Source: Corynebacterium minutissimum
Lineage (GTDB): Bacteria > Actinomycetota > Actinomycetes > Mycobacteriales > Mycobacteriaceae
Direction: 5' to 3'
Length of the DNA: 64,000 nt
NCBI RefSeq assembly: GCF_016889765.1
Contig: NZ_CP069533.1
Location: 758,504-822,503 of the forward strand
Under the pieces are notes generated by a model. The model made no database searches, was not told the DNA's origin, and saw nothing but the letters and a program-made list of their open reading frames with translations. Positions 21,459-41,199 of this stretch are shown here, one piece after another. A program made the translations under genes and the position numbers. How positions within the stretch are numbered: the stretch's first letter is position 1; the number at the start of each line of letters is the position of its first letter.

Positions 21459-24400
21459 CTACCCCCGCTCGGCGTCGGGTTCGAGTACTCCGTTGCGCAT
21501 TCGCGCGCCTTCACTGAGCAGCACGGCCGCCTCGCGTTCCTTGACCTCCGCGGCGGGTCCGCCGCCCAGGTTGCGATCCACCGGCCTCTGGTAGAGCGCC
21601 GAACCGCCTCGCATGGCGTCCTCGAGGCGGCGCAAGCCAGAGCGCTCTCTCGCCTCGGCTCTCTCGCGCCATGCCAGTGCAGTGTCGTCGCCGCATTCAG
21701 CCACGAGTGCTGACACGAAGGCCTCTGGGTGCACGACCGCAATGAGCGCGGAGACATGGCCGAAGCCCAAGGACGTCACCAGCCCCGCTTTGGGCGGGGT
21801 CCGGCGCAGGTCCAGCGGCTGGCGCAGCCACACCAGGTGTTCGTGCCGGCGCAGCTCAGGATCCACGCAGTCCAACGAGCGGTTCGGCGGGACGATACCT
21901 CCGCGCAGCACCTGGCACAGCCCGATGAGCTGAAAGGCGGCGGCTCCGCCTTTGGCGTGGCCGGTCAGGGTCTTTTGTGAAATAACGTAGAGCGGGTTCC
22001 CGTCGCTGCGCCCGAGGGCACGCGCGATGCGCTCATGTAGGTCGGACTCGTTGGGGTCATTGGCGCTCGTGGAGGTGTCGTGCTTGGACACTACCGCGAT
22101 GTCGTCCGGCGAAACCCCGAGTTCTGTGAGGGAACGCGCCAGGCGAGAGTCGGCTCCCCCGCGCGCCGCAGACAGCGCGCCGAGGCCCGGCGCGGGGATG
22201 GAGGTGTGCGCGCCGTCAGCGAAGGACTCGGCAAAGCCCACCACGCCGAGGACCGGCAGGCCCAGCTCCGCGGCTAGACTTCCACGCGCAAGCAGCAGCG
22301 TGCCGCCACCTTCAGACTCGACAAAGCCGCCGCGGCGGCGGTCGTTGGCCCGGGAGAAGAAGCGGTGCTCGATGCCCTTGGCCTCCATTTCTGAGCTATC
22401 GGCAGTAGCCGCCATGTCGCCGAAGCCTGTAATCCCCTCGACGGAGAGTGCATCAATCCCGCCGGCGACAACGACATCTGCCTTGTGCAGGCGCAGCTTG
22501 TCCACGGCTTCCTCGACGGAGACCGCCGCCGTTGCGCATGCCGCTACTGGATGCACCATCTGGCCGTAGCCGCCGACGTAAGACTGCATCACGTGCGCGG
22601 CAATGACGTTGGGCAGGGCTTCCTGCAGGATGTCGTGCTGTCGGGGGTGGGCGAGGAGCTTGTCGACGTACAAGGAGCGCAACGCCTCCTGCCCCGCCAT
22701 CCCGGTTCCCTGGGTGGAGCTCACCCGCGCCGGGTGGACGTGGGCAAGCAGCTCGGCCGGGCTAAAGCCGGCGGTGAGGAATGCCTCGACGGTGCACACA
22801 AGGTTCCATAGCGCCAGGCGGTCCACGCTATCCAGCATGTCCGCCGGGATGCCGTAGACCGCAGGATCGAAGCCTTCCGGAATCTGGCCGCCGACGAATC
22901 GTGTCATGGCTACGCGCCGCGGCACGCGTACAGCGGATCCGGCAGGGCGGGTCACCTGCCACTCGGCCTCACCGCCAGGGCTCGTGAGCACTCGCCGCAT
23001 CGTGGCACCTTCGCAGCTATCCACGAAGGACCGTGCGGTGGCTTCATCTTCAACGGCGAAGGTAAGCGGTTTCTCCAGGTAAATGGTGGTGAGCTCAGGT
23101 GCGAGGTTATCCACCATGGGCAGGTGCGGGCCAAAGTCATCGTGGAAGCGGCGCACGCCGATTCCGGCGAGAACCTCATCGTGAAAGCGGTCGTAGATGT
23201 CCTCTTCTGCGATTGTTTCACCCTCCGGCGTGGTCCACGCTGCGGTGGCGTCATCCCACGCCACGAGGCCTCGACTCCACGCCAGTTCCAGCACGCCCGC
23301 GGCGGAGAGATCTCCGCCGACTTCCACCTCGAAGCGCGTGCGCGCCGTGCCCAGCGGGCCCAGCTCCCCTGCTCCGACGATGACGACCATGTCCTCCAGG
23401 GACTGGGTAACCCCATCGAAGCTGGGTGTTGTCCAGTCCAGCGGTGCGAGTACGTTCGGCAGAGCCTTGACGGTGCGCGGCGCTGGGCTGGGGGACTTGG
23501 TGGGGGTCGGGGGGACGTCGCCAAGCACGGCGTCGCGAGAGAGCTTAGCCAAGTCTAGGTCGGCCCCAGCCAAACCACCGGTGAAGTCCATGACCACCGG
23601 TCCTTCGGCAGCCTGGATGAGGATGTCCTCGTTCGCGGCGTTATCCACAAGGCACATCGCCATGTCCTTCGCCGAATACGTGCTCACGCCGCGGGCCTCA
23701 ACCTGGTCGACGAGTGGATCGTTGGCCGCCATGAGCCCCGTGCCGCGCACCCAGCCAATGAGTGCGTGGACAAGCGAGGTCCGCGCGCCCCAGGTGTTCT
23801 GCTCGGAGTACCAGCGCTGCACCAGGGCGTCGAACGCCGCCTTGGCCTCGCCATAAGCGCCGTCGCCACCGAAGCGCCCGCGATTGGGCGAGCCTGGAAG
23901 CACCACGTGCAGGCGATGCCCCAGGTGGGTATCCGCGCCCAGCGCGGACAGGCCCGCGATGAGCTTTTCTACTGACCACAGCAGCAGGCGCATCTGGGCT
24001 TCTGATTCAGGACCAGCCTCCGCCACGGTGCCGCTCACGCGCGGGGCAGCAAAGGGGAAGAGCAGGTCGGGAACGAAAGCTGGCTTGCGCAGCGTGGTCT
24101 TTCCTCCCACGGTATCCGCCTGCTCTGAGCCGATCCACTCCACCAGCGCGTCGATGTCGGCGAAGGAGTTGAGGTTGGCCGGGACTACCCACAGCGCCGC
24201 GGTGCCGACGGCACGAGTGCGGTATAACTCCTTGAAAAACTCCAGCCGGTCCGGAGTAAGCTGCGAGGTCGTCGCGATAACCGTGGCGCCTTCGACGAGC
24301 AGCTCGGAGATGATTTCCGCGCCAATCGAACCCGGCGAGCTACCCGTCACCACGGCCACCTGCCCAGAGTGAAGAAGGAATTCACCGGGTACCTCAGCAT

Positions 24401-27400
24401 CCACCGCTTGATGGTGATAGCCCAGGTACTCGGCCATACGCGCAACCTCTGCGCCAGCACCAAGGACATCAAGGGGCGGATCTTCTACGCCCGCCGCCGC
24501 AGCGCGGACAAGGCCCTCGCGGGCATAAGCCCAGCAATCATCAAACAGGACAGCCTTCTTCGCGTCGAAGGCCGGCGCTACGCGCTGCGCCCAGTCCGGG
24601 CCCACTTCCCTGGCCACGAGTTCAGCAAGGTGCTCGTCATGCCCCGCCGCCTCACCGCGCACCGCATCATCACCGTGCTCAGTGCCGTCACGGCCGAGGG
24701 CCTCGAGCAGCGAGCGTGCGGAATCCTCGAGTGCGGATTCGAGTCGTTCCGTGTACGCAGCCAGCGCCGCTGGATCCACAACGGTGTCAGCGCTGGCGTG
24801 CGGCACCCGGGCCACCGTGACGTCGGCGCGGGTCGCGGTGGCTACAAGGGAGGCGTCGATAAGCTCATCCAGCTCCTGTGCGGTGCTGGCAGCGCTGACG
24901 GGTAATGTGGCCAGCTCCCCGCCGCGCAGGGACGCGCCCTCCCGGCTGCCCAGCACAAGCTCCGCCAGGGTGCGGTCGACCCACCCCGGGCCCAGACCCC
25001 ACTCATTGTTCACACGCTCGGCAATGTAACCCGGCTTCTTCCCCGCCGGTCCGGTCACACGACGCACAGCCTGCGCTACCTGCTCGGTAAGCACTGGGCC
25101 AAATGCGTGATAGCCCGGCGCGCGCTGCGCCACGGTCTGCGCCAGCTCGCTCACCGGCATATCCGCTGCACCATCGATGGCGGCGATGCCGAACTCTACG
25201 CCTAGGTCCAACAGCAGCTGGTTGCGGCGGGAGGATACGCCCTCCACCAAACCTTCAATCGTGTCGGTGGCCGCAATCTGATCAGGACGCACCTTCGTCC
25301 ATAGCGCGATAAGCATCTCAACCGCCTGCTGTGAGCTCAGCGGCTGGTCAGTAACCTTTTCGGTCGCGGCAACGGGGGTGGCTGTGTGGGTAGCCGACAG
25401 CTCATCGGCCGCGAGCTGTGGTGTGGGCTGTGACGGCTGAGAGTGCTCATCCGTCGGCACGGTCTCACGCGCCGGTGCCGGCTCTGTGTCCTCGGCGAAG
25501 ACCCGGGCATGGTCGCGCTCGGTGTTGAGGACCTCGACCTGAACGCCGTCGTACTCCGGCAAGCTAAGTGTCTGCCCCATCATGTTGGCCACGGTGGGGG
25601 CGTGCCCCACGCCGATCTCGACGAAGCGCTCTATTCCTAAGCCCGGAAGCCCGGCGGCAGTGTGCGCACCGCGCGGGGTCAGCAACAGGTCCTGCGTTTC
25701 GATCCACCGCACCGGGGAGGCAAACTGCCAGGCCAGCAGCTCCACTAGCAGTGTGCGGCCAAGCTTGTGCGGGTGCGCTGCGGCTGCTGCGAAGTCCTCC
25801 AGAATGGCCGCGATACGCGGCGAATCAACAACGTCTGCGATGGCCTCCACAAAGTCACGGTCCACGGCGAATGGCCGGGCAACGAGGTTGGGGACGTAGC
25901 GCCCCACCAGCACGTCGAGGTCGATATCCTGCGGGATGAGCTCATCTAAGTGCGCACGGAAATCATCTACCCCGTCCACTAAGCGTGAGGAGTGGAAGGG
26001 CACATCAATGCCGGGAATGGGGACAAAAGCGCGCTCGCCGGGCGCCCAGTGCTCGGCGTTTTCCTCGATGGCAATAAGGCCATCCACCGTGCCGGCAATG
26101 GCGTACTGGCGCCCGGCCACGTTGTAGTTGACCACCTCGAGGAACTCCCCGGTGACCTCAATGGTCTCGGCGATGTAGTCCGTGACCTCATCGGCGCGCA
26201 TCCCCATCTTGTGGGGCCTTAGCGCGCCCAGTCCGTAGCGCGAATAGCCCTCGGCATCACGCTCCACGAGCCGGTCCATGGTGAGGCCACGCACATAGAC
26301 GATCTCCAACACGGCCTCGAGCGAAAGCACCTCGGCGTAGGCAGCCAGCGCGTTGTACTCGCCTACGGAATGCCCGCCAAAGGCCGCAGTGCTATCCAGT
26401 ACCCTGGCCTCCTTCAGCGCAGCAATCTGCGCGCAGCCCAGCGTAGCCATGGCTACCTGCGTGAACTGGGTAAGGTACAGGACACCATCGGGATGGGAAT
26501 ACGTCGTGCCGCGCACGACCACGATGTCCGGGTTATTCCGCACAATCTCCAGAATGGAAAAGCCCAGGTGTTGTCTCGTGTGGGCGTCGGCGCGTTCCCA
26601 CACCGCGCGTGCCGCGGGCGAGGTCCCGTACTCCTGCATCCCCATCCCCGGGGCCTGAATGCCCTGGCCGGGAAAAGCATAGAAGGTGCGTGGTGCGCTC
26701 ATCACAGCGCGCGCTTCCAACACCACCACGCCAGCACTCGTCGCGGTGACGGAGCGGACTTCGCCGTGGCCGCCGCGCTTGTCGACGCCCACCCGGTCCA
26801 CCACCAGCTCCACCTCACTGCCCGGGCGTACCGGCGCGAGCATGGTCGCGGACCACTGCAGGACTCGGGCCCCGTCGAAGGCGGCAGCAGTCTGCGCCAG
26901 CACTGACGTCCACATGCCATGCACGATAGGGCCATCCTCGAGCCCCGCCAGTGCTGCGGCGTTCGCAGACACGTGTATGGGGTTATGGTCCCCCGTCACT
27001 ACCGCGAAAGGACGCAGGGATTCCGGCGCCGTAACGGTGCGGCGGTGACGGAAAGACCGCGGGGTCTCTCGAATGAACTCCGAGGAGTCCTCAGCGGAAT
27101 CATCCGTGGCCGGCGCAACGCGAGTGCCGACGCGGCCAGGGATGAGGAAACGTTCGCGCAGCCGGGCGAGGTTGCCGTCGTGATCGATGCGTACCGCAAT
27201 CTCCACCACGCGGCCCGAGGCTGTATCCCACACGCCGCGCAGTCGGGCGGTGGCCTGCACCTGTAGGGGATCTGCGCCCGGCTCCGCCGCAGCAGCGAGA
27301 AGCCCTGCAGCCCCTTCGGTCAGTTCCACCGAGTGTGCAAGGTGCACAAGGTTGAGCAGGCCCTCAACCACGGGCTCCCCCACCACGACGTGCTCTCCGG

Positions 27401-30400
27401 CCGTGCGGGCCACTGAAATGACGGCAAAAATGGCCGGCCACGCGGTACCTACTAACACGTCGGGCACGACTGGGCCATCGGCGCTACCGGCACTGGTCAC
27501 AGAAACATAGTTCGCCATGTCCGCCGCATCGAGGGTGGCCGTAACCGTGGCGCTACCGCCATCTACCTCCGGCAGTGTTCCCCCAGCAGCCACTCGGGCT
27601 AGCTCCCGCATGGCGGAAGCAGCATCCTCTGCGCTGACGACGGGCGAAGCACCCGGCACACGCGGTGCAGCGATGCGCACGCGCAGCGTGGAGTCAGCAT
27701 TCGCAGCACTGCGGGCGCCGACACCAAGAGGAACGGTGAACCAGAAGTCCGCGGGGTCTGTGCTCACCGGTTCGAGGGTCGCGCCGGGCAGGTTGAGGCG
27801 TAGCGGGTTCGCCTGCTCGCGGCCAGCCCAGTTGAGGCACGGCGCCCGGCGAAGGAGTTCCTCAGCGGTGGGCGCGGGGGCATCCAGGTGTGGAGTGGGG
27901 GCTGCTGAAAGCAGGTCGATAGTGGCCTGCTCGAAGCGCTTCAGCAACTGCGCAACCGGTTCGTTGGCGTATTCAATGCCCTCGACGCCCGCTGTACCTG
28001 GGATGATGCAGACACTGTCGGCATCGAAGTGCTCGTCGTGGGCCTGCCACAAGGAATCCTGGCGGAAGCGGCGGCGCACGGCAGCATCGATAATCGGCAC
28101 AAACCCCGGTGGCTTACCGGGGCCGTCAAGGAGGGACACGAACCACGCAGCATCCGTCGGGTGAAGGGCAGCGTCACCGTAAAGCTCAACAAGCTCATCA
28201 ATTGCGGCCGCAGGGTCGGCGGCATCGACTGTGACCTGCAGGGCTATCTCACCGTGGTCAACGTCGTGCAGTCGGGCTTCGGCGCGCGCCACTATCTTCT
28301 CGAAGCGAGTACACCACGATTCATCTGTCCAGCCGTCGTGGAAGGATAACTCCACATAACGTCGCAGCCACTCGGCGTAGCTCATGGCGTCAAGGTCCCC
28401 AAAGTAGGGTTTGCACGTCTGCGCTAGGGCAGCAGCGATCTCCTCGCGGTGAGCGGACACCAGCTCCTCATCACCCGCAACCGCATCGAGCAGACGCCCG
28501 GCGTGGGCGAAGGAATTATCCAGCTCGTGGATGCTGGCGCCGAGGTCGGAACGGCCCGAAGTGACATCGTCTTCCGTGGCAGCAACGAGTGCCTGCTTCA
28601 CCGACGCCGACGCCGTGGACTCGGCAGTGGCCATCGCGGCAGTGCCGATCATGATGGCGTCGACAGGTGCTGCGGGCAGGCCACGACGCCGCGACCACTC
28701 GCCGGTGAGGTACTCCGCGCCCTGAGTCGGGGTGGCGATGCCGCCGCCAACGGCAAGCAGAACGTTGGGGTGCCGACGGATATCGTCATAGGTGGCGGCA
28801 AGGAGCTCGTCGAGGTCCTCAGCGGAGTGGTGGCCGCCGGCTTTGCCACCTTCTACCTGCATTATGAGCGTGGTAGACACGGCACGGGCGATGGCCAGCA
28901 CCTGCTTGATTTGTTCCACCGTGCCGGGTTTGAAAGCTACCCACGGGATGTTCTCTGCGTGGAGGCGCCGTACCAGGTCACATGCTTCCTCGTGCGGCGG
29001 GATTCCGGCGGAGATGACTACGCCGTTGAGCGGTGCCCCCGCTGCACGCGATCGTGGGATGGCACGCTGGCCTTCAATCTGGCGCCGCCACTGCGAAGCA
29101 GATAAGTACAGAGCATTGAACTGGGCATTAACCCCCGGCGCGAGGAGACGCGCGAGTCTCTCCAGGTTCTGGTCCAGAATGTCCTCGGTATGTTGGCCGC
29201 CGCCAGCGAGCTCCGCCCAGTGCCCAGCATTGGCAGCCGCGGCAACGATTTCCGGATCCACTGTGGTTGGTGTCATGCCAGGCAGCATGACCGGGGAATA
29301 GCCGGTCACTTCAGTAAAACGCGAAGAGAGGCGTCCGCCGACGAGGCGCGGCGCGAAATCAGACCAGGCTGCCGGCACGGCAGAGGCACGGCCGGGCGCG
29401 AAGAGCTGCGCTTGGCCCTCAGCAGTACCCACGGCTAGGGTTCCCACGCCACGTCCGGCCACCGCCTCTCGGGTTAGCGGCTCAACACCGCGGGAGGGGC
29501 CTATCTCCAGAATCCAGCGCGCGCCGGCGGCAACCGCCTCGTCAACGCGGGCAGGCCAGTCAACGGTATCTGTCAGCACTGCGCGGGCAAGCTCGCCGGC
29601 AAGGACTAAATCGAGTTCGAGGTCGGCGGCCCAGCGCTCCACCTGTTCCACAGCTGGAGCTAGGGCCGGATGGTGGAAGGCGGCATCAACATCAAGGTCC
29701 GTGAAGGTCACCTGTTCGCCTGCCATGGTGCGACGCACGCGGGCAAGCTCCTCCGGGGTGCCCACGATGACGCTGCGTTCGCGGCCATTGATGAGACCGA
29801 TATGGGCACCTAACTCGTGGAGTTGTTCCTGCGTAGCTCCGTCAACCGCCACCATGGGCGCTCCCTGGGCGGTGCGCACAAACCCGTGGATGCGGGCAGT
29901 CGTCGTCAACGCAGCACCAATGAGCCGGGCTATGGCCAGGGCCTCGCCTGGGGTCGCGCGACCAGTCGTCACAGCGGCGGCAAGAACGCCTTGGGAATGA
30001 CCAAGACTCAACACGGCATTAGATATATCTAGGCCCTGTGCCCGCACAGACTCCATGACCGCAAGCTGAGCGCACAAGATACCCGGAGTGGACACAGCAG
30101 GGGCGGATAGCGCGAACCCAGGCTCGGACTCCGCCCACGTTAGTGGTGCGAAGCCGTGCGGGGAGGCGGGAAGGAGGGCGTCGCTGAGCGGAGCGAGTAT
30201 CTCTTCCGCGTCGGCGAGGTACGCGGCAATCTGCGGCCGCACCCCCGCAGCGAGTGCCTCCCGGAGGGTAGGCAACCAGGTATAACCTTGGCCGGAAAAG
30301 GACAGCGCATAAGGCGCCGCGCTTACTCCCGGCGCAGCAATGTTAGGGATATCCACGCGCGCTATTCCCCCAAGACACGCGCTACGCGTTGAACTGCTTC

Positions 30401-30440
30401 GTCGAGGGAGGGCTGCGTTTGGGGCTTGGGCAGGCCGCAA
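21459..30440 (-). CDS. fas: Type I fatty acid synthase (FAS-I), actinobacterial multidomain enzyme
   Basis: A 2993-aa ORF. The N-terminus aligns to M. tuberculosis Fas (YALSFSGQGYTW vs YAVAFGGQGSAW). Domains are acyltransferase (GHSQG), enoyl reductase, dehydratase, MPT, ACP, KR and C-terminal KS (active-site ATACSS-like). Confidence 0.9.
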   Translation of the reverse strand: MRPAQAPNAALPRRSSSTRSACLGGIARVDIPNIAAPGVSAAPYALSFSGQGYTWLPTLREALAAGVRPQIAAYLADAEEILAPLSDALLPASPHGFAPLTWAESEPGFALSAPAVSTPGILCAQLAVMESVRAQGLDISNAVLSLGHSQGVLAAAVTTGRATPGEALAIARLIGAALTTTARIHGFVRTAQGAPMVAVDGATQEQLHELGAHIGLINGRERSVIVGTPEELARVRRTMAGEQVTFTDLDVDAAFHHPALAPAVEQVERWAADLELDLVLAGELARAVLTDTVDWPARVDEAVAAGARWILEIGPSRGVEPLTREAVAGRGVGTLAVGTAEGQAQLFAPGRASAVPAAWSDFAPRLVGGRLSSRFTEVTGYSPVMLPGMTPTTVDPEIVAAAANAGHWAELAGGGQHTEDILDQNLERLARLLAPGVNAQFNALYLSASQWRRQIEGQRAIPRSRAAGAPLNGVVISAGIPPHEEACDLVRRLHAENIPWVAFKPGTVEQIKQVLAIARAVSTTLIMQVEGGKAGGHHSAEDLDELLAATYDDIRRHPNVLLAVGGGIATPTQGAEYLTGEWSRRRGLPAAPVDAIMIGTAAMATAESTASASVKQALVAATEDDVTSGRSDLGASIHELDNSFAHAGRLLDAVAGDEELVSAHREEIAAALAQTCKPYFGDLDAMSYAEWLRRYVELSFHDGWTDESWCTRFEKIVARAEARLHDVDHGEIALQVTVDAADPAAAIDELVELYGDAALHPTDAAWFVSLLDGPGKPPGFVPIIDAAVRRRFRQDSLWQAHDEHFDADSVCIIPGTAGVEGIEYANEPVAQLLKRFEQATIDLLSAAPTPHLDAPAPTAEELLRRAPCLNWAGREQANPLRLNLPGATLEPVSTDPADFWFTVPLGVGARSAANADSTLRVRIAAPRVPGASPVVSAEDAASAMRELARVAAGGTLPEVDGGSATVTATLDAADMANYVSVTSAGSADGPVVPDVLVGTAWPAIFAVISVARTAGEHVVVGEPVVEGLLNLVHLAHSVELTEGAAGLLAAAAEPGADPLQVQATARLRGVWDTASGRVVEIAVRIDHDGNLARLRERFLIPGRVGTRVAPATDDSAEDSSEFIRETPRSFRHRRTVTAPESLRPFAVVTGDHNPIHVSANAAALAGLEDGPIVHGMWTSVLAQTAAAFDGARVLQWSATMLAPVRPGSEVELVVDRVGVDKRGGHGEVRSVTATSAGVVVLEARAVMSAPRTFYAFPGQGIQAPGMGMQEYGTSPAARAVWERADAHTRQHLGFSILEIVRNNPDIVVVRGTTYSHPDGVLYLTQFTQVAMATLGCAQIAALKEARVLDSTAAFGGHSVGEYNALAAYAEVLSLEAVLEIVYVRGLTMDRLVERDAEGYSRYGLGALRPHKMGMRADEVTDYIAETIEVTGEFLEVVNYNVAGRQYAIAGTVDGLIAIEENAEHWAPGERAFVPIPGIDVPFHSSRLVDGVDDFRAHLDELIPQDIDLDVLVGRYVPNLVARPFAVDRDFVEAIADVVDSPRIAAILEDFAAAAAHPHKLGRTLLVELLAWQFASPVRWIETQDLLLTPRGAHTAAGLPGLGIERFVEIGVGHAPTVANMMGQTLSLPEYDGVQVEVLNTERDHARVFAEDTEPAPARETVPTDEHSQPSQPTPQLAADELSATHTATPVAATEKVTDQPLSSQQAVEMLIALWTKVRPDQIAATDTIEGLVEGVSSRRNQLLLDLGVEFGIAAIDGAADMPVSELAQTVAQRAPGYHAFGPVLTEQVAQAVRRVTGPAGKKPGYIAERVNNEWGLGPGWVDRTLAELVLGSREGASLRGGELATLPVSAASTAQELDELIDASLVATATRADVTVARVPHASADTVVDPAALAAYTERLESALEDSARSLLEALGRDGTEHGDDAVRGEAAGHDEHLAELVAREVGPDWAQRVAPAFDAKKAVLFDDCWAYAREGLVRAAAAGVEDPPLDVLGAGAEVARMAEYLGYHHQAVDAEVPGEFLLHSGQVAVVTGSSPGSIGAEIISELLVEGATVIATTSQLTPDRLEFFKELYRTRAVGTAALWVVPANLNSFADIDALVEWIGSEQADTVGGKTTLRKPAFVPDLLFPFAAPRVSGTVAEAGPESEAQMRLLLWSVEKLIAGLSALGADTHLGHRLHVVLPGSPNRGRFGGDGAYGEAKAAFDALVQRWYSEQNTWGARTSLVHALIGWVRGTGLMAANDPLVDQVEARGVSTYSAKDMAMCLVDNAANEDILIQAAEGPVVMDFTGGLAGADLDLAKLSRDAVLGDVPPTPTKSPSPAPRTVKALPNVLAPLDWTTPSFDGVTQSLEDMVVIVGAGELGPLGTARTRFEVEVGGDLSAAGVLELAWSRGLVAWDDATAAWTTPEGETIAEEDIYDRFHDEVLAGIGVRRFHDDFGPHLPMVDNLAPELTTIYLEKPLTFAVEDEATARSFVDSCEGATMRRVLTSPGGEAEWQVTRPAGSAVRVPRRVAMTRFVGGQIPEGFDPAVYGIPADMLDSVDRLALWNLVCTVEAFLTAGFSPAELLAHVHPARVSSTQGTGMAGQEALRSLYVDKLLAHPRQHDILQEALPNVIAAHVMQSYVGGYGQMVHPVAACATAAVSVEEAVDKLRLHKADVVVAGGIDALSVEGITGFGDMAATADSSEMEAKGIEHRFFSRANDRRRGGFVESEGGGTLLLARGSLAAELGLPVLGVVGFAESFADGAHTSIPAPGLGALSAARGGADSRLARSLTELGVSPDDIAVVSKHDTSTSANDPNESDLHERIARALGRSDGNPLYVISQKTLTGHAKGGAAAFQLIGLCQVLRGGIVPPNRSLDCVDPELRRHEHLVWLRQPLDLRRTPPKAGLVTSLGFGHVSALIAVVHPEAFVSALVAECGDDTALAWRERAEARERSGLRRLEDAMRGGSALYQRPVDRNLGGGPAAEVKEREAAVLLSEGARMRNGVLEPDAERG

Positions 30441-30569: not shown

Positions 30570-31337
30570 ATGGCCTCTCGCACCCCCTTCTTTCTCGCTG
30601 CTCAACTCAACGTCCTCGTTGCTGCATTGGTGGTGTGCGGCCTGCTACTTCCCTCCCCTGCCGAGCAACCAGACACTGCGCAGGGCAACGCGCCCTCATC
30701 TACGCGCGAGCACCCTACGCACGCCCCTTCCCCGGACAGCCCTGAGGTTGACACAGACAGTCCCGCGGCGGCCGACGCCCTGGCTGCGCTGGATTCCTTG
30801 GAAGTCAAAGGCCGCGCGCCGATGACGGGTTACGATCGCGCGCACTTTGGGCAGGCGTGGTCCGACGATGTCACCGTCGAGTTTGGCCATAACGGCTGCG
30901 ATACTCGCAACGACATCCTCCGCCGTGACCTGGACAATCTTGTCATCAAAGAGGGCACCTTTGACTGTGTAGCGATGTCCGGCACGCTGCATGACCCGTA
31001 CTCTGGGCAGGTCATCGACTTTCAGCGCGGGGCGGGGACATCCGAGGCTGTACAGATTGACCACGTTGTCGCGCTGGCCGACGCCTGGCAGAAAGGCGCC
31101 CAGCACTGGTCACCCGAGCAGCGCCGCAATTTTGCTAATGATCCACGCAACCTCCTCGCCGTCGACGGGCCACTCAACCAGCACAAAGGCGCCGGCGATG
31201 CCGCCACGTGGCTACCTCCCCATCGGGCCTTCCGCTGCGAGTACGCGCAGCGCATCGTCGACGTGAAGGCGGCGTATGGCGTGTGGGTAACCGAAGCAGA
31301 GAAAGAAGCGCTCAGCCGCCTGCTGCAGGAGTGCTAA
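30570..31337 (+). CDS. Secreted DUF1524/HNH-like nuclease-domain protein (GmrSD C-terminal-domain family)
   Basis: N-terminal signal/transmembrane segment. TGYDRAHFGQAWSDDVTVEFGHNGCDTRNDIL ... IDHVVALADAW resembles DUF1524. Confidence 0.55.
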   Translation: MASRTPFFLAAQLNVLVAALVVCGLLLPSPAEQPDTAQGNAPSSTREHPTHAPSPDSPEVDTDSPAAADALAALDSLEVKGRAPMTGYDRAHFGQAWSDDVTVEFGHNGCDTRNDILRRDLDNLVIKEGTFDCVAMSGTLHDPYSGQVIDFQRGAGTSEAVQIDHVVALADAWQKGAQHWSPEQRRNFANDPRNLLAVDGPLNQHKGAGDAATWLPPHRAFRCEYAQRIVDVKAAYGVWVTEAEKEALSRLLQEC

Positions 31338-34020: not shown

Positions 34021-34890
34021 CTAGTAGACCACGAAACCCTCCTTACGGAACGCATCTCGGACAGATTCAACGTCTTCCGGTTTAGGCGGCTTGGTGTCCT
34101 CCAAAGTGTAGGGCATGTTGAGCTCACGCCACTTATCTGCGCCCATGTTGTGGAAAGGCAGCACCTCGACTCGCTCGACGTTGCTCTTCCAGCGGGAGGC
34201 AATCTTGACCACGTTGGCGACATTCTCCGGGGAATCCGTCAGGCCAGGGACGAGCACGAAACGAATCCACACCGGCTTGCCCATCTCATTGAGACGGTCA
34301 CCGAAGTCGATGGTGGGTTGCAGCTCGCGGCGCGTGACTTCCTTGTAAGTCTCCTCGTCACCAGCCTTGACGTCCAAGAGAACGAGGTCAATGTTGTCCA
34401 AGTCCTCGTCGCGCAGGCGCGCGCCCAAGTATCCCGACGTGTCAATCGTCGTATGGATACCCGCGTCGTGGACCTCCTTGAGCAAGCGCCGGGCAAACGC
34501 AATCTGGAACAGCGCTTCGCCGCCAGACATAGTCAGACCACCTCCGGAGGAGTTGAAGACAGGCTTATAGCGCTTGATGCGCTTCACCACGTCTTCAATG
34601 CGCTCCAGAGTGCCGACCTTCATTTCCATCGTGTCAGGGTTGTGGCAGTACTGGCAGCGCAGCGGGCATCCCGACATGAACAAAGTCATGCGGGTTCCAG
34701 GGCCATCAACGGCGGTCACCAGCTCCCAAGAGTGAACGAGGGCAATGTCGCCAGAACGGCGTGCCTGCATCAACTCCGGGCGGCTGAACTCGTCGAGGTC
34801 ATTATCTGTGCCCAAACCGGCGGCGGCGCCGCGCACCTTGTCACCCTCTTCAGGGGACAGGTGGACGACGCCGGTAATGCCATCTGCCAT
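34021..34890 (-). CDS. pflA: Pyruvate formate-lyase activating enzyme (glycyl-radical activase, radical SAM)
   Basis: CPLRCQYCHNPDT is the CxxxCxxC radical-SAM motif found near the N-terminus of glycyl-radical activases. Confidence 0.85.
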   Translation of the reverse strand: MADGITGVVHLSPEEGDKVRGAAAGLGTDNDLDEFSRPELMQARRSGDIALVHSWELVTAVDGPGTRMTLFMSGCPLRCQYCHNPDTMEMKVGTLERIEDVVKRIKRYKPVFNSSGGGLTMSGGEALFQIAFARRLLKEVHDAGIHTTIDTSGYLGARLRDEDLDNIDLVLLDVKAGDEETYKEVTRRELQPTIDFGDRLNEMGKPVWIRFVLVPGLTDSPENVANVVKIASRWKSNVERVEVLPFHNMGADKWRELNMPYTLEDTKPPKPEDVESVRDAFRKEGFVVY

Positions 34891-35142
34891 CTAGGAGCCC
34901 TGGTGGAAGGTACGGGAGATGACGTCGAGCTGCTGCTCGCGGGTCAGCTTGACGAAGTTCACTGCGTAGCCAGACACGCGGACAGTGAGGTTCGGGTACT
35001 TCTCCGGGTGCTCAACAGCGTCCTCCAGGGTGGACTTGTCCAGGACGTTGATGTTGGCGTGGTACAGGCCCGAGTCCATGTTGTTGGCGGTGCGGTTTGC
35101 CTTCATGGTTGCGAGACGCTCGTCGAAAGTTGGGGTAGCCAT
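34891..35142 (-). CDS. Stand-alone glycyl-radical domain protein (GrcA/YfiD-like). Appears to be the detached C-terminal domain of PflB.
   Basis: [28 protein letters not shown] is the PFL glycine-radical signature RVSGY. Start at ATG 35142 with an AAAGGAG ribosome-binding site 8 nt upstream. 83 aa. Confidence 0.7.
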
Positions 35143-35179
35143 GATGTTTTCTCCTTTTCGGAAGTGGTGTGAAAGTGGT

Positions 35180-37273
35180 TTACTTGGAATCCATGATGAA
35201 GCCGGCGTCGAGGACACCCACCAGGTTGGTGATGCGTTCCTCAGGCGTGCGGCCCAAACCGGACGGGGTGATGGTGTTCGTCAGCGAGATGCCGTCGAGC
35301 GCATCCTTGTAGTCCAGCTTGCCCACCGACAGCATGGAAGCGACCATGCCGTGGTTGTCTGCGCCGTTCTCCGGGTTTGCGCCCGGGGCGAACGGAGTAC
35401 CTGCCTCGTGGCCAGACGGGAAGGAACCAGTAGCCTTGCCGTAGACCACGTTGGAGGTAATGGTCAGCACAGACTGGGTCGGGATGGCGTTGCGGTACAT
35501 CGGGATGGCCTTAATCTTCGCCATCACGGTGTGGACGATGGTGGCGGCGATGTCATCGGCGCGGTCATCATCGTTGCCATAGAACGGGAAGTCACCTTCC
35601 GTCTTGTAGTCCACGATGAGACCAGTCTCATCGCGCACCGGGTAGACCTTGGCGTACTTGATGGCGGAGAGGGAGTCAGCCACGATGGACAGACCCGCGA
35701 TACCGCAGCCCATGGAGCGCACAATGTCGGAATCGTGCAGTGCCATCTCGATGGACTCGTAGGCGTACTTGTCGTGGCAGTAGTGGATGATGTTGAGGGC
35801 CTCAACGTAGGTGCCCACAACCCAGTCCAGCATCTCCTCGTACTTCTGCCAGACCTCGTCGAAGTCCAGCGGGCCATCGCCCTGGATAGCCTCGTAGCCG
35901 TCCACGACTTGCTTTCCGCTGACCTCGTCGCGGCCTCCGTTGATGGCGTAGAGCAGGGCCTTAGCGGCGTTCACGCGGGCGCCGAAGAACTGCATCTGCT
36001 TGCCGACGGCCATCGGGGACACGCAGCAGGCAATCGCGGCGTCATCGCCCCACTGTTCACGAATCTGCTTATCGGACTCGTACTGGATGGACGAGGTCTC
36101 AATCGAGATGTGGGCACAGAATTCCTTGTAGCCCTCCGGCAGCTGCGGATCCCAGAAAATGGTGATGTTCGGCTCCGGTGACGGGCCAAGGTTGACCAGG
36201 GTCTGCAGCAAACGGAAGGAGGTCTTGGTGACTAGGTGGCGGCCGTCAGAACCGAAACCAGCATCGGTCCAGGTTGCCCAGTAGGGGTCACCGGAGAAGA
36301 TCTGGTCGTAATCCTCGGTACGCAGGAAGCGCACGATACGCAGCTTGAGGACCAGCTGGTCGATGATCTCCTGAGCGTCTTCCTCAGTGATGATGCCAGC
36401 GGCAAGGTCGCGCTCGAAGTAGCAATCGAAGAAGGCGGAGAGGCGGCCGATGGACATGGCGGCGCCGTCCTGGGACTTAATGGAAGCCAAGTAGCCAAAG
36501 TAGGTCCACTGAACAGCTTCGTGAGCGGTCTTAGCCGGCTTGGAGATGTCAAAGCCGTAGGACTCAGCCATGACCTTAAGCTTCTTCAGAGCCTTGATCT
36601 GCTCGGCGTGCTCCTCACGGTAGCGAGCCCAGTGCTCGGAGAATCCGACATCGCCCACTGCATGCTTGGACGCTTCCTTCTCAGCGATGAGGTAGTCCAC
36701 ACCGTAGAGAGCCACACGGCGGTAGTCGCCAATGATGCGGCCACGGCCATAAGCATCCGGCAGACCGGTAATGATGTGGGAAGAACGAGCAGCGCGGATG
36801 CGCGGGGTGTAGATATCGAAGACGGCATCATTGTGCGTCTTGCGGTAGCGGGTGAAGATCTTCTCCACCTCGGGGTCGGTTTCCTTACCGGCCTCCTTGA
36901 TAGCCTGCTTGACCATGCGCCAGCCACCATTCGGCATCATGGCGCGCTTCAGCGGGGTATCCGTTTGCAGGCCAACAATGACGTCGTCCTCTTCGCAAAT
37001 GTAGCCAGCCGGGAAAGCGTCAATATCAGTTGGGGTGTGGGTGTCGACATCGAAGATGCGCTTCTTGCGCTCGATGGACAGGTAGTTTTCTTCCAGGTGC
37101 TCCCAGACGCGCTTGGTCTTTTCGGTCGGGCCCTCCAAGAAGGAAGCATCTCCGTCATAGGGGGTGTAGTTGCGCTGGATGAAATCGCGGACGTCGATGT
37201 TCTCGGTCCACGGGCCTTCTTCAAAGCCCTTCCATCCCTCAAACTGGACGGATTGCTCAGTTGCGGTGGTCAC
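35180..37273 (-). CDS. pflB: Formate C-acetyltransferase (pyruvate formate-lyase) catalytic protein, lacking the C-terminal glycyl-radical domain
   Basis: Collinear with E. coli PflB throughout, including the Cys-Cys active site AIACCVSPM. Ends at ...[15 protein letters not shown], just before the glycyl-radical domain. GTG start with a GAAGGGAG ribosome-binding site. Confidence 0.8.
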
Positions 37274-37304
37274 TATAATGACTCCCTTCGTACTTCATAC
37301 GACG

Positions 37305-37322
37305 TGTGGAAAATCTGCCACA
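37305..37322. promoter_or_regulatory. CRP/FNR-family-like palindrome in the pflB leader
   Basis: TGTGG-aaaatctg-CCACA, 30-50 nt upstream of the pflB start. The spacing is non-canonical for GlxR (TGTGA-N6-TCACA). Confidence 0.2.
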
Positions 37323-37663
37323 GAAGGGTTTTGGTGACTCCAGTTCACGGGCAATTCGGTCATCACGGTTGTCACCGAACCCCTCTCTGCAGCCCATAGT
37401 AAGGGCAAAGCCGTTTTAACTCATATCGTGCGTTTTATGAGGTAAATCACTAAAAACACCGCACAGTGGCCACCCCGCAGGTCGCCGGATCCATAGGTAA
37501 CGACCGTACTGTTGACTCGCGGGGGTGGACCACCCCCTAAAGTGGCATTCACCACAGTTTTTCGCGTTCATTGGGCGAGCTGAATCCGCTTCTTGGTGTG
37601 TATCCACACCGCGCTCTATTGTTATGCGCAGTATCCTCGTCTCGCCCTCAAGGAGCTCTTCGC

Positions 37664-39586
37664 GTGTCTGACACCGCCGCTACTGCTAGCCCCGCCACTG
37701 CCCCAACTCACCCCGTGGACGTTGTCCCGCCAGCGCCCAAGCTGGCGGCTCTCGGCCTCCAGCACGTTCTCGCGTTCTACGCCGGCGCAGTGATCGTTCC
37801 GCTACTCATCGCTGGTTCCCTGGGCCTCGATGAGGCCACCACAATCCACCTCATCAACGCCGACCTGTTGACCTGTGGTCTGGCAACGTTGATCCAAGCG
37901 GTGGGCGTCGGCAAGCACATTGGCGTCCGTCTCCCCATCATCCAGGGCGTGACCACCACAGCGGTGAGCCCCATCATTGCCATTGGTATGAGCGCAGGTG
38001 ACCAGCCGCTACCCACAATCTATGGCGCGATTATTGCCGCCGGTATCTTTACGTTCTTCGCCGCGCCGGTTTTTGGACGCGTGCTCAAATACTTCCCACC
38101 CATCGTGACCGGCACCGTGCTTCTGGTCATGGGTACCTCACTGCTCGCGGTGTCCGCCAATGACTTCGTGAACTACGCCGACGCCGCCCCCGCCTCGCGC
38201 GACCTTCTCTATGGTTTCGGCACGCTCACCATCATTATCATCGTGCAGCGTTTCTTCCGCGGCTTCCTGGGCACACTCTCTGTACTCCTCGGCCTCGTCA
38301 TCGGCACTGGCGTGGCCTTGGCACTAGGTGATACGTCCTTTGACGGCGTGCGCGAGGCCGACGCCATCGGTATAACCACGCCTTTCTACTTCGGTATGCC
38401 GAAGTTCGACATCATGGCGATTCTTTCCCTCATCATCGTCATGATCATCACCATGGTGGAAACTACCGGCGATGTCTTTGCTACCGGTGAGATTGTCAAG
38501 AAGCGCATCAAGCGCGATGACGTCGTGCGCGCCATTCGCGCCGATGGTCTCTCAACCACCCTTGGTGGCGTGATGAACTCCTTCCCCTACACCTGCTTCG
38601 CGCAGAATGTCGGTCTCGTACGTCTTACTGGTGTGAAGTCCCGCTGGGTAGCCGTGTCCGCCGCCGGCTTCATGATTATTCTGGGCCTGCTGCCCAAGGC
38701 TGCCGCCATCGTCGCCGCCATCCCCTCCCCGGTCCTCGGCGGCGCCTCCTTGGCGCTCTTTGCCAACGTCGCTTGGGCCGGCCTGCAGACCATTGCCAAG
38801 GAAGATATCACCGACGGCCGCAACGCCGCCATTGTCACCACCGCACTGGGACTGGCCATGCTCGTCACCTTCAAGCCGGACGTGGCAGCGGCCTTCCCAG
38901 AATGGGCACAGATCTTCGTCTCCTCCGGTATGTCCATCGGTGCGATTACCGCCATCCTGCTCAACCTGCTGTTCTTCCACGTCGGTACGCAATCCGGTGA
39001 CGATATCAGCCGCATCGACGGCGAAGGGGTGTCTCTCACCGAGCTCAACGCCATGGAGCGCGAGGAATTTGTCAGCGCGCTGCGCCCGCTCTTCAACAAC
39101 GAAACGTGGCCTCTGGAGGCAGCTTGGGAGTCCCGTCCCTTCGACGACGTCAGCCGCCTGCGTGAGGCCATCCAGGTCGCCGTGCTGACCGCCCCGCGTG
39201 AGCAGCGCCGTGCGCTCATCCACGATTACCCGGCCATGGATGAGCTGCTGCTTGCCGACGCTACCGAGGCCGCCACCATCTCCGCCGACCGCGGGTCGCT
39301 TGCCCTCGATGACTTGGATGATGTCCAAACACAGCAGCTTATCGACGTCTCCCGGGCCTACCGCGAGCGATTCGACATGCCCTTCGTGGCTTACCTAGAC
39401 ACCAACGATTCTGCCGACCGCGTCATCGACGGAGGCGTGCGCCGCCTCGCCAACTCCGACGAGCTGGAGCAGCGCGTCATCTTGAGCGAAATCATCGAGA
39501 TTGCCAACGACCGCTTCGACATCCTGCTCGCCGATGCCAACCCGGTGCGCGCTTACTGGGACCGCAAGTTCACCGAGGTGGAGTGA
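37664..39586 (+). CDS. NCS2-family nucleobase (xanthine/uric acid-type) permease fused to a C-terminal OHCU-decarboxylase-like (UraD-like) domain
   Basis: The N-terminal ~460 aa form a polytopic NCS2 permease. The C-terminal ~180 aa (LNAMEREEFVSALRPLFNNETW...RPF...LIHDYPAMD...RFDMPFVAYL) resembles the OHCU decarboxylase family. GTG start at 37664 with an AAGGAG ribosome-binding site. Confidence 0.65.
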   Translation: MSDTAATASPATAPTHPVDVVPPAPKLAALGLQHVLAFYAGAVIVPLLIAGSLGLDEATTIHLINADLLTCGLATLIQAVGVGKHIGVRLPIIQGVTTTAVSPIIAIGMSAGDQPLPTIYGAIIAAGIFTFFAAPVFGRVLKYFPPIVTGTVLLVMGTSLLAVSANDFVNYADAAPASRDLLYGFGTLTIIIIVQRFFRGFLGTLSVLLGLVIGTGVALALGDTSFDGVREADAIGITTPFYFGMPKFDIMAILSLIIVMIITMVETTGDVFATGEIVKKRIKRDDVVRAIRADGLSTTLGGVMNSFPYTCFAQNVGLVRLTGVKSRWVAVSAAGFMIILGLLPKAAAIVAAIPSPVLGGASLALFANVAWAGLQTIAKEDITDGRNAAIVTTALGLAMLVTFKPDVAAAFPEWAQIFVSSGMSIGAITAILLNLLFFHVGTQSGDDISRIDGEGVSLTELNAMEREEFVSALRPLFNNETWPLEAAWESRPFDDVSRLREAIQVAVLTAPREQRRALIHDYPAMDELLLADATEAATISADRGSLALDDLDDVQTQQLIDVSRAYRERFDMPFVAYLDTNDSADRVIDGGVRRLANSDELEQRVILSEIIEIANDRFDILLADANPVRAYWDRKFTEVE

Positions 39587-39602: not shown

Positions 39603-39697
39603 GTAGATTCGGGTCACTCCACGTTCGATCGGGTCACTCCACGTTCGATCGGGTCATTCCACGTTCGATCTGGTCATTCCACGTAGACTCGGGTCAC
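39591..39697. repeat. 20-bp tandem direct repeat, about 5.4 copies, in the convergent intergenic region
   Basis: Units: aggtcactccacgtagattc, gggtcactccacgttcgatc (twice), gggtcattccacgttcgatc, tggtcattccacgtagactc, then partial gggtcac. The last unit overlaps the 3' end of the DUF4230 gene on the opposite strand. Confidence 0.8.
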
Positions 39698-40299
39698 TGG
39701 AATTCCATGGTGACCTGGGCCTGTGGGTCGACGCCGCGGATGATGCCCTCATAGAAACTGCGAGCTTGGTCCTGCAAGAGGTCGCGGTTATCGTTGATGT
39801 CCTTGCGCTTCTTATCAGCGCTGAGGACATCAGACACCGTGGAGGCAGCATCGAGTGGCTGCGTGGTCCAACTCAGCACGCCGTTGTCCTCCACCGCAGT
39901 CTTGAACTCCTCGTCGGTATGACCGATGAAGATAAATTCCGGGATGCTGACGGTATAGGCGTGCTCACCGGTCTCCGTGACGCGAACATCCTTGCCTTCA
40001 ATTCCCAGCTTCGCCTTGTAGGAGTACTGCACGAACTGTGTGCGATCGGTCCACGGGACCCGCACGCCAAAGACTTCGCCCGCGGAGGACTTCTCTGCCA
40101 GTCCCTGGATTCCGAGACTGAGCAGCACCACCTGTTCTTGGCGCTCCACCGCAGTGACTATCTGCGAATTCGTGGACTCCACTGGTGCGCTATACACATC
40201 GCGCGGCTGACGCACGATATACATACCCAAACCGGCGCAGACGAGAGAAAGAAGCACTACGACGGCAATAAGCGTGGTGCTGAGCTTGCGGTTAGACAT
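39694..40299 (-). CDS. DUF4230-like membrane-anchored protein
   Basis: Start at ATG 40299, directly after the upstream gene's stop. N-terminal transmembrane segment STTLIAVVVLLSLVCAGLGMYIV. Confidence 0.55.
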   Translation of the reverse strand: MSNRKLSTTLIAVVVLLSLVCAGLGMYIVRQPRDVYSAPVESTNSQIVTAVERQEQVVLLSLGIQGLAEKSSAGEVFGVRVPWTDRTQFVQYSYKAKLGIEGKDVRVTETGEHAYTVSIPEFIFIGHTDEEFKTAVEDNGVLSWTTQPLDAASTVSDVLSADKKRKDINDNRDLLQDQARSFYEGIIRGVDPQAQVTMEFQ

Positions 40300-40303
40300 G
40301 AGC

Positions 40304-40660
40304 TTAAAGCTGGAACTGCTCGGTAACCTCAACGCGGCGCTTGTGCTCCATCCAGAAGGACAGGAACGGCACCACACCGGCCAAAGCAGTAGTGATGAGC
40401 TTGCCCACCGGCCACAGCGCACGCGGACCCAGAATCAGAATCGACACGAGGTACACCATGTAAGCCACACCATGCGCCTGGGCGATGAGCGTGGCCCAGG
40501 ACGGCATTTCCATGCCCACGCCGTACTGCAGAATCATGCGCACGACCAGAATGAGCAAGAAGATACCCGTAACCGTGGCCGCAATGGAGAAGAACTTCAG
40601 CGGTCCGCGAATGCGCTCCTTGCGGTCTGGGTGCACGGCATTGTTCGCTGGGTTGGTCAT
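40304..40660 (-). CDS. DUF3817-like small membrane protein
   Basis: 118 aa with about 3 transmembrane segments. Sits next to rdgB as M. tuberculosis Rv1342c does. Confidence 0.55.
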   Translation of the reverse strand: MTNPANNAVHPDRKERIRGPLKFFSIAATVTGIFLLILVVRMILQYGVGMEMPSWATLIAQAHGVAYMVYLVSILILGPRALWPVGKLITTALAGVVPFLSFWMEHKRRVEVTEQFQL

Positions 40661-41055
40661 GAGTTCTCCTCTTCGGTGCCGCGACGGCGGCGCTGCTTAT
40701 TCATGGCATTAAAGGTCTCGACGTCCACCTGCGGGCGCGGCGGCAAAAAGTCTTCGTCGATTTTAGTCACCTGTTGTTCCTTGGCTACATCCTTGGACGT
40801 GGCTTCATACCGGGCCGGCTCCTGCCCCAACTCGAGGGCTTCATTCTCCGCATCAATGCGCTCGTTCTCATAGCGCAGTGCGGTGCGGTAAGCATAGACC
40901 ACGAAGACAGCAAACAGCGGCCACTGGAAGGCATAGCCCAAGTTCTGGAAGGTTCCTGAACCGGACTTGAAGCGGGTCCACTGCCAATAGGCAAGGAACA
41001 AAAAGAGCACGACGAAAAACGCGATGAGGACGATGTGCCACCATCGAACCTTCAT
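40657..41055 (-). CDS. Hypothetical membrane protein (LprD-position homolog)
   Basis: Two transmembrane segments (WWHIVLIAFFVVLFLFLAYW and WPLFAVFVVYAY) then an acidic tail. Start at the internal ATG at 41055. Confidence 0.5.
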   Translation of the reverse strand: MKVRWWHIVLIAFFVVLFLFLAYWQWTRFKSGSGTFQNLGYAFQWPLFAVFVVYAYRTALRYENERIDAENEALELGQEPARYEATSKDVAKEQQVTKIDEDFLPPRPQVDVETFNAMNKQRRRRGTEEENS

Positions 41056-41199
41056 CTTCTTTCTCGGGGCTTGGTTGGTGCTCACGCGTATCAGCCTACC
41101 CACCATGGTTCGAAAAGTGGATTTCCATCGTAGGCCTGCCGCCCTGTAAGCTATTCAGCGTTGCTCCGAACACAGTATGTTTCGCGGCTACGTCTTTCA

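Follow-up and report, generated by a model that had tools for sequence, protein, structure and literature searches.

A nucleobase permease of Corynebacterium minutissimum that carries a Tyr-type relative of OHCU decarboxylase, a likely pseudoenzyme module

Results

Structure of the gene and its product

Here, we describe a gene from a 64,000-nucleotide stretch of the Corynebacterium minutissimum genome (contig NZ_CP069533.1, positions 758,504 to 822,503), which is referred to as the window throughout. The gene lies on the forward strand (37664..39586) and is a complete coding sequence for 640 amino acids (aa) plus a TGA stop. It joins an NCS2 permease to a domain related to OHCU decarboxylase (UraD), termed Tyr-type here after the residue at the position of the catalytic histidine. 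The underlying open reading frame (ORF) in our ORF list spans 37571..39586 (+), and the GTG at 37664 is used as an internal start. A Shine-Dalgarno-like AAGGAG (37650..37655, +), located 8 nt 5' of this GTG, favours the 640-aa start, which is also the one chosen by NCBI; the product is 100% identical to the entry 'solute carrier family 23 protein [Corynebacterium minutissimum]' (P0001). At gathering thresholds, Rfam reports four tRNAs only in the window and nothing credible at E <= 1 in the region 37200-37750, and a promoter and terminator scan found neither element. On these scans, the regulatory RNA 5' of the gene that we had considered was rejected.

The permease core with its 14 transmembrane helices (TM1 to TM14) covers aa 20-437 (37721..38974, +), as supported by PF00860, TIGR03173, TIGR00801, phmmer and an AlphaFold2 (AF2) model. 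Xan_ur_permease (PF00860) matches aa 26-406 with an E-value of 2.8e-94 and 316 bits against a gathering threshold of 27, and the NCBIfam cutoffs of TIGR03173 (pbuX, xanthine permease; 477.9 bits vs 414.15) and TIGR00801 (ncs2; 359.8 bits vs 291.8) are passed. The permease is found by phmmer as a relative of UapA (5I6C, E 2e-32), and aa 21-436 cover residues 11-405 of the 429 residues of UraA (3QE7), which indicates a complete core. The full-length AF2 model (mean predicted local distance difference test, pLDDT, of 77; predicted TM-score, pTM, of 0.63) places helices across aa 24-438, with block pLDDT mostly at 75-92.

The NAT signature motif FAQNVGLVRLTG (aa 312-323, including Gln314 and Asn315; 38597..38632, +) aligns with FAQNNGVIALTR of UapA. 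Its segment QNVGLVRLTG (aa 314-323; QNNGVIALTR in UapA) fits the TM10 pattern [Q/E/P]-N-x-G-x-x-x-x-T-[R/K/G]. Across 78 diverse full-length fusions, F312, A313, N315 and G317 are invariant, and the variation at position 314 (Gln here, FAENVG as consensus) is permitted by the motif. In the alignment, Glu266, Asp270 and Asp294 pair with E356, D360 and D388 of UapA, and Gln314 and Asn315 with Q408 and N409. The substrate-binding Glu of TM8 and Gln of TM10 of purine-type NATs (UapA E356/Q408) are retained as Glu266 and Gln314, and judged by its sequence the permease looks complete and functional.

A variable linker (aa 438-460; 38975..39043, +) connects the core to the C-terminal domain. Its pLDDT falls below 50 at aa 441-454, and of the four segments of the protein it shows the lowest identity and the highest ratio of nonsynonymous to synonymous substitution rates (dN/dS). 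The UraD-like domain itself spans aa 461-620 (39044..39523, +), as supported by PF09349, AF2 and Foldseek. The OHCU_decarbox profile (PF09349) matches aa 462-618 with an E-value of 6.4e-30 and 105 bits, far above the gathering threshold of 24. By its profile matches the protein is a member of both NCS2 and the PF09349 superfamily. A first-pass annotation, made from the letters of the DNA, had proposed a complete NCS2 core followed by a UraD-family domain of about 180 aa, and the Pfam and NCBIfam profiles confirm this architecture. The domain scores below all three NCBIfam UraD equivalog cutoffs (TIGR03164, 65.4 vs 96.25; TIGR03180, 30.5 vs 139.4; NF010372, 53.1 vs 124), whereas fusions of the soil type clear that of TIGR03164 with 108-127 bits.

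When the domain was modelled by itself in AF2 from 100 family sequences, the model reached a pLDDT of 87.4 and a pTM of 0.83. Searched against the PDB with Foldseek, it retrieved 13 chains at E <= 0.001 and 2Q37 at E 3e-3, all of them OHCU decarboxylase, allantoin synthase or the UraD-family protein Atu2327, and no other fold scored significantly. The target-normalised TM-score lies at 0.76-0.84 for single-domain chains; for allantoin synthase 5Z5M, which has 272 residues, it is 0.48-0.49, and the Foldseek probability is 1.0 for 3O7H, 2O70, 5Z5M, 2O8I and 2Q37. No STAS domain was found in the Pfam scan or in the Foldseek search of the domain. According to this model the C-terminal domain is a true, all-alpha UraD fold, in good agreement with the fold first assumed. 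The domain follows TM14 of a UraA/UapA-type fold, and since the C-terminus is cytoplasmic in the UraA and UapA structures, it must be cytoplasmic as well, which is where the first reading had placed it.

Beyond the Pfam domain, the protein ends in a conserved tail, LLADANPVRAYWDRKFTEVE (aa 621-640; 39524..39583, +), which carries an ADANP motif. The alignment shows this ADANP core also in distant fusions. The aligned zebrafish and Klebsiella UraD sequences stop short of the tail and hold no counterpart. AF2 confidence is low for the last 18 residues, and the pLDDT of the tail is below 50 in the full-length model. The tail may be an interaction or plug motif.

Residues at the catalytic positions

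Catalytic sites are numbered after zebrafish OHCU decarboxylase (His67, Glu87, Arg161). Comparison by phmmer with the zebrafish (2O70) and Klebsiella (3O7H) enzymes equates Tyr522 with His67, Asp542 with Glu87 and Arg617 with Arg161. A MAFFT alignment with the 150 best representatives of an exhaustive search (843 matches at E <= 1e-3) concurs. On the DNA, the TAC codon of Tyr522 lies at 39227..39229 (+), Asp542-Arg543, at the position of Glu87-Gln88 of the SxxEQ motif, at 39287..39292 (+), and the retained active-site Arg617 at 39512..39514 (+). The motifs quoted in the first-pass annotation were located as RPF at 491-493, HDYPAMD at 520-526 and RFDMPFVAYL at 569-578. Its claim that the catalytic His is replaced by Tyr holds in three independent alignments, which also agree on Asp for Glu87, and no proper alignment brings the His back.

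Among the 78 fusions, 76 have Tyr in the His67 column, two have Phe and none has His; in the Glu87 column 77 have Asp and one has Glu. Gln88 is kept in 67 of the 78 and is replaced by Arg in the Corynebacterium clade. Arg161 is present in every fusion and in 94% of canonical UraDs. A separate set, made of genes called in genome loci, shows Tyr in 76 of 79 cases, the other three being mis-called ORFs. In the MAFFT alignment, canonical members show 'HP', 'SxxEQ', 'FPF' and 'RL', while the permease-linked sequences all have Tyr or Phe, Asp (rarely Glu), and mostly 'FPL' and 'RF'; according to Pfam, the long sequences and the fragments with an N-terminal overhang are NCS2 fusions. The SxxEQ motif (Ser84, Glu87, Gln88) reads I-S-A-D-R in C. 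minutissimum, at positions where canonical members have Ser in 99%, Glu in 99% and Gln in 100%.

Over the 142 full-length family sequences compared, 107 have His at His67. For the conservation table, a comparison set of 106 His-type sequences, which carry His by construction, was used, and 29 positions are at least 80% conserved in these canonical UraDs. Eighteen of the 29 are retained in all fusions, including Arg36-Pro37-Phe38 (RPF), Pro68, Tyr111, Arg138, Glu146 and Arg161. Five positions have switched to new conserved residues, namely E23Q (97%), H67Y (97%), E87D (99%), F119L (99%) and L162 to F. The Corynebacterium clade changes further by L70M, S84I, Q88R and G92A and keeps F119, so that the C. 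minutissimum protein departs from the clade majority at Ser84, Gln88, Gly92 and Phe119; at Glu23 it has Asn, where most fusions have Gln. The catalytic roles attached to His67 and Glu87 in this text are taken from general knowledge of the enzyme and from the conservation table. On this pattern we read the substitutions as re-tuning and not as decay.

Two other explanations of the Tyr were considered and rejected. His520 of HDYPAMD is not a displaced catalytic His, as its column is variable (Ser/Gly/Arg/Asp/His) and holds Arg or Ala in near relatives. A single-base sequencing error, TAC for CAC, is ruled out, as Tyr recurs in two sets of independent sequences (76 of 78 and 76 of 79).

A subgroup of fusions (P0141, P0146, P0147 and P0269) has Phe in place of Tyr and 'D/E-H' in place of 'D-Q' in the substrate loop, and represents a third flavour of the pocket.

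Clade and selection

A neighbour-joining tree was built without the two diagnostic columns and examined by an unrooted bipartition test, with no bootstrap. One bipartition gathers 30 of the 32 Tyr/Phe sequences and no genuine His sequence. This delimits an unnamed clade of permease-fused, Tyr-type proteins with the domain C-terminal to NCS2, Tyr or Phe at His67, Asp at Glu87, a retained Arg161 and an ADANP tail, and the C. minutissimum protein fits it. Two stand-alone proteins of about 165 aa, P0213 and P0256, have Tyr at His67, keep Glu87 and group among canonical UraDs; from their sequences they look like independent His to Tyr events.

Selection was measured by the Nei-Gojobori method against C. 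hesseae and an aurimucosum-like strain. Within Corynebacterium, dN/dS is 0.024-0.031 for the permease and 0.09-0.10 for the domain, which evolves 3-4 times faster than the permease. It is 0 for the 20-residue tail, which has no nonsynonymous change against either genome at a dS of 0.6-0.8. Compared with C. accolens, the protein is 84% identical over the permease, 76% over the domain and 85% over the tail. In Corynebacterium, the dN/dS values show the domain to be under purifying selection. The first-pass annotation was right on the architecture, on the loss of the His and on the lone locus (see below), and its term 'degenerate' does not hold: Tyr and Asp are near-invariant across the clade, 18 of 29 canonical positions are kept, and dN/dS of the domain is low. 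It made no mention of the exchange of Glu87 for Asp, of the linkage to purine clusters in other genomes, or of Tyr-type and canonical UraD occurring together, even in one polypeptide.

In two loci the fusion gene is split into two overlapping ORFs (L089, Arcanobacterium hippocoleae, 7108-9020; L090, 6890-8831), with no purine genes near. Either a frameshift pseudogene or an assembly error would account for them.

Distribution and genomic context

When one genome of each GTDB species was scanned with a sequence pattern, the fusion was found in at least 334 loci, 80 of which were retrieved for inspection. The pattern was derived from a 7-sequence alignment, and since this alignment leans to the soil FGFPL type, Corynebacterium-type loci are left out of the locus set. 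All 80 inspected loci belong to Actinomycetota and include Kribbella, Nocardioides, Pedococcus, Lapillicoccus, Nostocoides, Humibacillus, Pseudonocardia, Geodermatophilus, Microlunatus, Flexivirga and Nakamurella; a member of the Solirubrobacterales was also found.

Neighbouring genes in the 80 loci were clustered, and cluster representatives were scanned with Pfam. The genes xdhA/xdhB occur in 67 loci, downstream and on the same strand, a guanine-deaminase-like amidohydrolase in 65, and a PucR regulator, upstream, in 44. They are accompanied by a glyoxylate carboligase-type thiamine pyrophosphate enzyme (39), hydroxypyruvate isomerase-type (34) and tartronate semialdehyde reductase-type (33) proteins, an allantoinase-like protein (32), uricase (28 by this clustering) and glycerate kinase (25). 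The loci L086 and L091 show similar purine-catabolism surroundings. In L086, a domain-less NCS2 permease adjoins uricase and UraD, and the fusion precedes xdh (8151-9749 and 10001-11935). The two permeases of this locus suggest a division of labour, possibly between urate and xanthine uptake.

A six-frame scan of the same loci found a canonical stand-alone UraD (HPxhG ... SxxEQ) within 10 kb in 43 of the 80, uricase in 41 and HIU hydrolase in 34, and canonical UraD is present in 33 of the 41 uricase loci. In about ten loci the UraD gene overlaps the stop of the fusion or starts within about 100 bp of it (L004, L006, L010, L012, L013, L017, L018, L020, L021, L022, L036). Moreover, triple fusions occur in which NCS2 is followed by a Tyr-type and then a His-type UraD in one polypeptide: P0427 (825 aa), P0453 (826 aa), the ORF 75-1202 of L075, and P0138, from a Nakamurella metagenome-assembled genome and from soil metagenomes. 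Pfam finds two OHCU_decarbox stretches in P0427 as well as in P0453, and the motifs of P0427 read SFYPDLGS..KDQSS..FGFPLIV and then RHPRIGEK..SEQEQS..RVFLIRA. L075 had at first been taken as a non-Tyr fusion by way of a mis-called ORF and is in fact such a triple fusion. A triple-fusion entry at 8381-10861 of L091 again lies upstream of xdhABC. Because a canonical UraD is encoded beside the Tyr-type domain or fused to it, the sequence data indicate that the Tyr-type domain is not the decarboxylase of the pathway. Two copies side by side would make little sense with one and the same function.

The situation is different in C. minutissimum, C. accolens, C. hesseae, the aurimucosum-like strain, C. 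vitaeruminis and Arcanobacterium, where the fusion has no purine-catabolism neighbours. Searches with tblastn using Xdh, uricase, allantoinase, PucR, Gcl and other representatives found nothing in the window, and neither uricase nor HIU hydrolase is present within it. This bears out the earlier remark that no purine-catabolism genes adjoin the gene. Upstream it is flanked by pflA/pflB, and on the downstream side follow membrane proteins, DUF3817, rdgB and rph; the other genes of the window are of housekeeping type (type I fatty acid synthase, pflA/pflB, rdgB, a racemase, NAPRTase, ctaD, nrdE). Corynebacterium species keep the domain, and they do so in two different genomic settings. Their copy is no longer set among purine-catabolism genes and has diverged further in the substrate loop.

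Some further features of the window were recorded. Just downstream of the fusion, two Pfam-negative predicted proteins (39694-40422 and 40657-41106, both on the minus strand) flank the DUF3817 gene, a neighbour which is conserved in C. accolens, C. hesseae and the aurimucosum-like strain. At 34021-37273 (-), pflA (radical SAM activase), a 108-aa ORF (34891-35217) with a C-terminal Gly_radical motif only, and pflB lie in a row, an order that is also found in the C. accolens and C. hesseae loci. This small ORF has the appearance of a spare glycyl-radical domain of the GrcA kind. The type I fatty acid synthase, of 2993 aa (21459-30440, -), adjoins a protein with a GmrSD_C domain, which is restriction-endonuclease-like (30570-31337, +).

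Discussion

Relation to known systems

The fusion domain shares PF09349 and the all-alpha fold with the canonical OHCU decarboxylases, i.e., UraD, HpxQ and the N-terminal domain of B. subtilis PucL (2O70, 3O7H, 2Q37, 5Z5M), and with them the 18 retained positions. It differs from them by Tyr for His67, Asp for Glu87, Asn for Glu23 and Ile/Arg/Ala for Ser84/Gln88/Gly92, by its tether to a membrane transporter, by its extra conserved tail, by its separate clade and by its scores below the NCBIfam cutoffs. Other UraD fusions, namely uricase-UraD (PucL), UraD-HIU hydrolase (plant TTL / 5Z5M) and M20 amidohydrolase-UraD (PRK13799-type, P0255), likewise combine a UraD-family domain with a partner from the purine pathway. 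PucL and plant TTL are reported to be active enzymes. P0255, the one M20 amidohydrolase-UraD that was checked, keeps the His/Glu pair, whereas in the C. minutissimum fusion the partner is a transporter and the pair is replaced.

With the NCS2/NAT permeases (E. coli XanQ/UacT, B. subtilis PbuX/PucJK, A. nidulans UapA) the protein has in common the core, the NAT motif and the substrate-binding Glu and Gln, and the fusion genes of the soil relatives lie beside PucR and xdh genes as pbuX/puc transporters do. Unlike the fusion, UraA and UapA have no folded enzyme-like domain after TM14 in their structures, and we know of no such domain in other characterised NCS2/NAT members. The tails of NAT proteins are described in a review as carrying short motifs only (PMC6597760). 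A similar design, with an elevator transporter and a cytoplasmic C-terminal regulatory or enzyme domain, is found in SulP/SLC26 proteins with STAS or fused carbonic anhydrase. Their domains are not homologous to the fusion domain, and the likeness is one of analogy and not of membership. SLC26, SLC4 and SLC23 share the 7+7 elevator fold, and carbonic anhydrase fusions of SulP transporters were reportedly described by Felce and Saier in 2004.

Our search of the literature library found no paper on the fusion, on its Tyr/Asp signature or Tyr-type UraD, or on the coexistence with UraD. The domain architecture is already visible in precomputed Pfam annotations, and the sources label such entries as 'solute carrier family 23 protein', as 'uric acid transporter' or as 'OHCU decarboxylase'. 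The last name is given to fusions of 640-660 aa (P0413, P0417, P0391 and many more) despite Tyr/Asp at His67/Glu87, because the soil-type domain passes the TIGR03164 equivalog cutoff. The fusion domain fails the defining catalytic features of UraD and is therefore not to be filed as EC 4.1.1.97.

Proposed function and its alternatives

Most likely, to judge from the sequence evidence, the domain is a pseudoenzyme module, either ligand-binding and regulatory or UraD-docking. The non-catalytic role, in ligand sensing or channelling, that the first-pass annotation had in mind can reasonably be inferred. The form we prefer, with a probability of about 0.4, is a working NCS2 importer with a purine-metabolite-binding regulatory module that would have been made from an OHCU decarboxylase paralogue. 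The permease would act as an H+-coupled importer of the xanthine/urate type. With His67 changed to Tyr, Glu87 to Asp and Glu23 to Asn or Gln, the acid-base chemistry of the decarboxylase would be gone, while most residues of pocket and fold are kept. The old active site could then take up a planar purine or ureide, such as xanthine, urate or allantoin, which would stack on the Tyr or Phe and be held by Arg617. Occupancy of the site might be relayed to the transporter dimer by way of the linker and the conserved tail, and uptake would be subject to feedback or trans-regulation. Ring stacking is favoured over proton transfer since some members have Phe. Uptake would be tied to the pathway from xanthine via urate to allantoin in soil actinomycetes; in Corynebacterium, with the gene out of its cluster and the substrate loop altered (Ser84 to Ile, Gln88 to Arg, Gly92 to Ala), the module presumably serves purine salvage. 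The active site of canonical UraD accepts purine-like ligands: guanine is said to have been seen in zebrafish 2O74 by Cendron et al. in 2007, and French and Ealick reportedly found in 2010 that allopurinol inhibits the Klebsiella enzyme competitively. That the domain binds a ligand, which ligand this is and that transport responds to it are all points that we infer here.

Several points weigh against this proposal. The loop of Asp542 is poorly predicted (pLDDT <50 at aa 537-548 in the full-length model), and the geometry of the pocket is drawn only from alignments. A catalytic site of altered chemistry would be expected to conserve Tyr and Asp just as strongly. True UraD genes that adjoin or overlap the fusion, and UraD domains fused in tandem with it, suit a docking or pseudo-dimer role at least as well. 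Corynebacterium has three extra changes in the substrate loop, and therefore what is inferred from the soil relatives may not transfer.

That docking role, which we consider unlikely, would make the domain a pseudo-subunit or metabolon anchor: an inactive paralogue that pairs with the dimeric true UraD, perhaps also with uricase or HIU hydrolase. The enzymes that lead from urate to allantoin would thereby be held at the importer, and unstable intermediates would be handled beside the entry point. It draws on the overlapping or closely following UraD genes of the eleven loci named above, on the 43 of 80 loci with UraD within 10 kb, on the tandem of Tyr-type and His-type domains in single proteins, and on the dimer in which canonical OHCU decarboxylase crystallises (PMC2834698). 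Docking alone leaves the invariant pocket residues Arg161, Arg138, Glu146 and Tyr111 unexplained, and it is not an obvious design to anchor the last enzyme of a three-step route instead of uricase. Moreover, the domain is maintained by purifying selection although the loci of Corynebacterium, Arcanobacterium and C. vitaeruminis have neither UraD nor uricase nearby. The same invariant residues, together with the near-invariant Tyr and Asp, resemble a maintained active site (here Arg161, Arg138 and Glu146 count), and soil orthologues clear the TIGR03164 cutoff. It is accordingly conceivable, though rather improbable, that the domain is an active enzyme of altered chemistry, with Tyr522/Asp542 as a new catalytic pair acting on OHCU or on another substrate that derives from purines and is brought in by the permease. 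Beside or fused to a canonical UraD, a second domain of the same activity would be superfluous, and the Phe of some members allows no proton donation. For C. minutissimum in particular, the protein remains below all UraD equivalog cutoffs (65 vs 96, 30 vs 139, 53 vs 124), and a supply of OHCU needs uricase and HIU hydrolase, neither of which is in the window.

We regard it as very improbable that the domain has a structural role only, stabilising the transporter dimer or its folding with no ligand and no partner, or is a vestige in Corynebacterium. Such a role would suit the finding that NCS2 transporters function as dimers (PMC6597760) and the rate at which the domain changes, 3-4 times that of the permease. 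It would also suit the loss of Ser84, Gln88 and Gly92, retained in other fusions, from the Corynebacterium clade, and the frameshift-split copies in Arcanobacterium and on a metagenome contig. A dN/dS of about 0.1 and an unchanged tail are not the behaviour of a vestige, and the domain is held across Corynebacterium species in both genomic contexts. Returning to the ligand-binding regulatory module, it can be taken one step further: from the cytoplasmic side, the Tyr-type domain might sense purines or ureides and gate the elevator-type NCS2 transporter allosterically. In some species, it might also recruit the real enzyme into a transport metabolon. This extension is speculative, and on the sequence data we hold it to be somewhat doubtful.

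Implications

From a practical point of view, there is an annotation problem, as pipelines call many transporters of 640-830 aa 'OHCU decarboxylase' though they are without residues that are near-universal in canonical members. From a biological point of view, one sequence pattern defines a large and coherent actinobacterial clade, present in at least 334 species genomes, that carries a urate-pathway enzyme domain on a transporter while the true enzyme is also kept. It offers a testable case of the conversion of an enzyme to a sensor or to a scaffold. NCS2/NAT nucleobase transporters are model elevator transporters and candidate routes of drug uptake, and to our knowledge the literature describes none with a folded regulatory domain in the cytoplasm. 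If the sensor proposal is true, the domain would be the first ligand-operated regulatory domain in SLC23/NAT, and a pathway enzyme would have been turned into a receptor for the metabolites of its own pathway. The fusion suggests a possible coupling of uptake to purine catabolism or salvage, including in Corynebacterium of the human skin.

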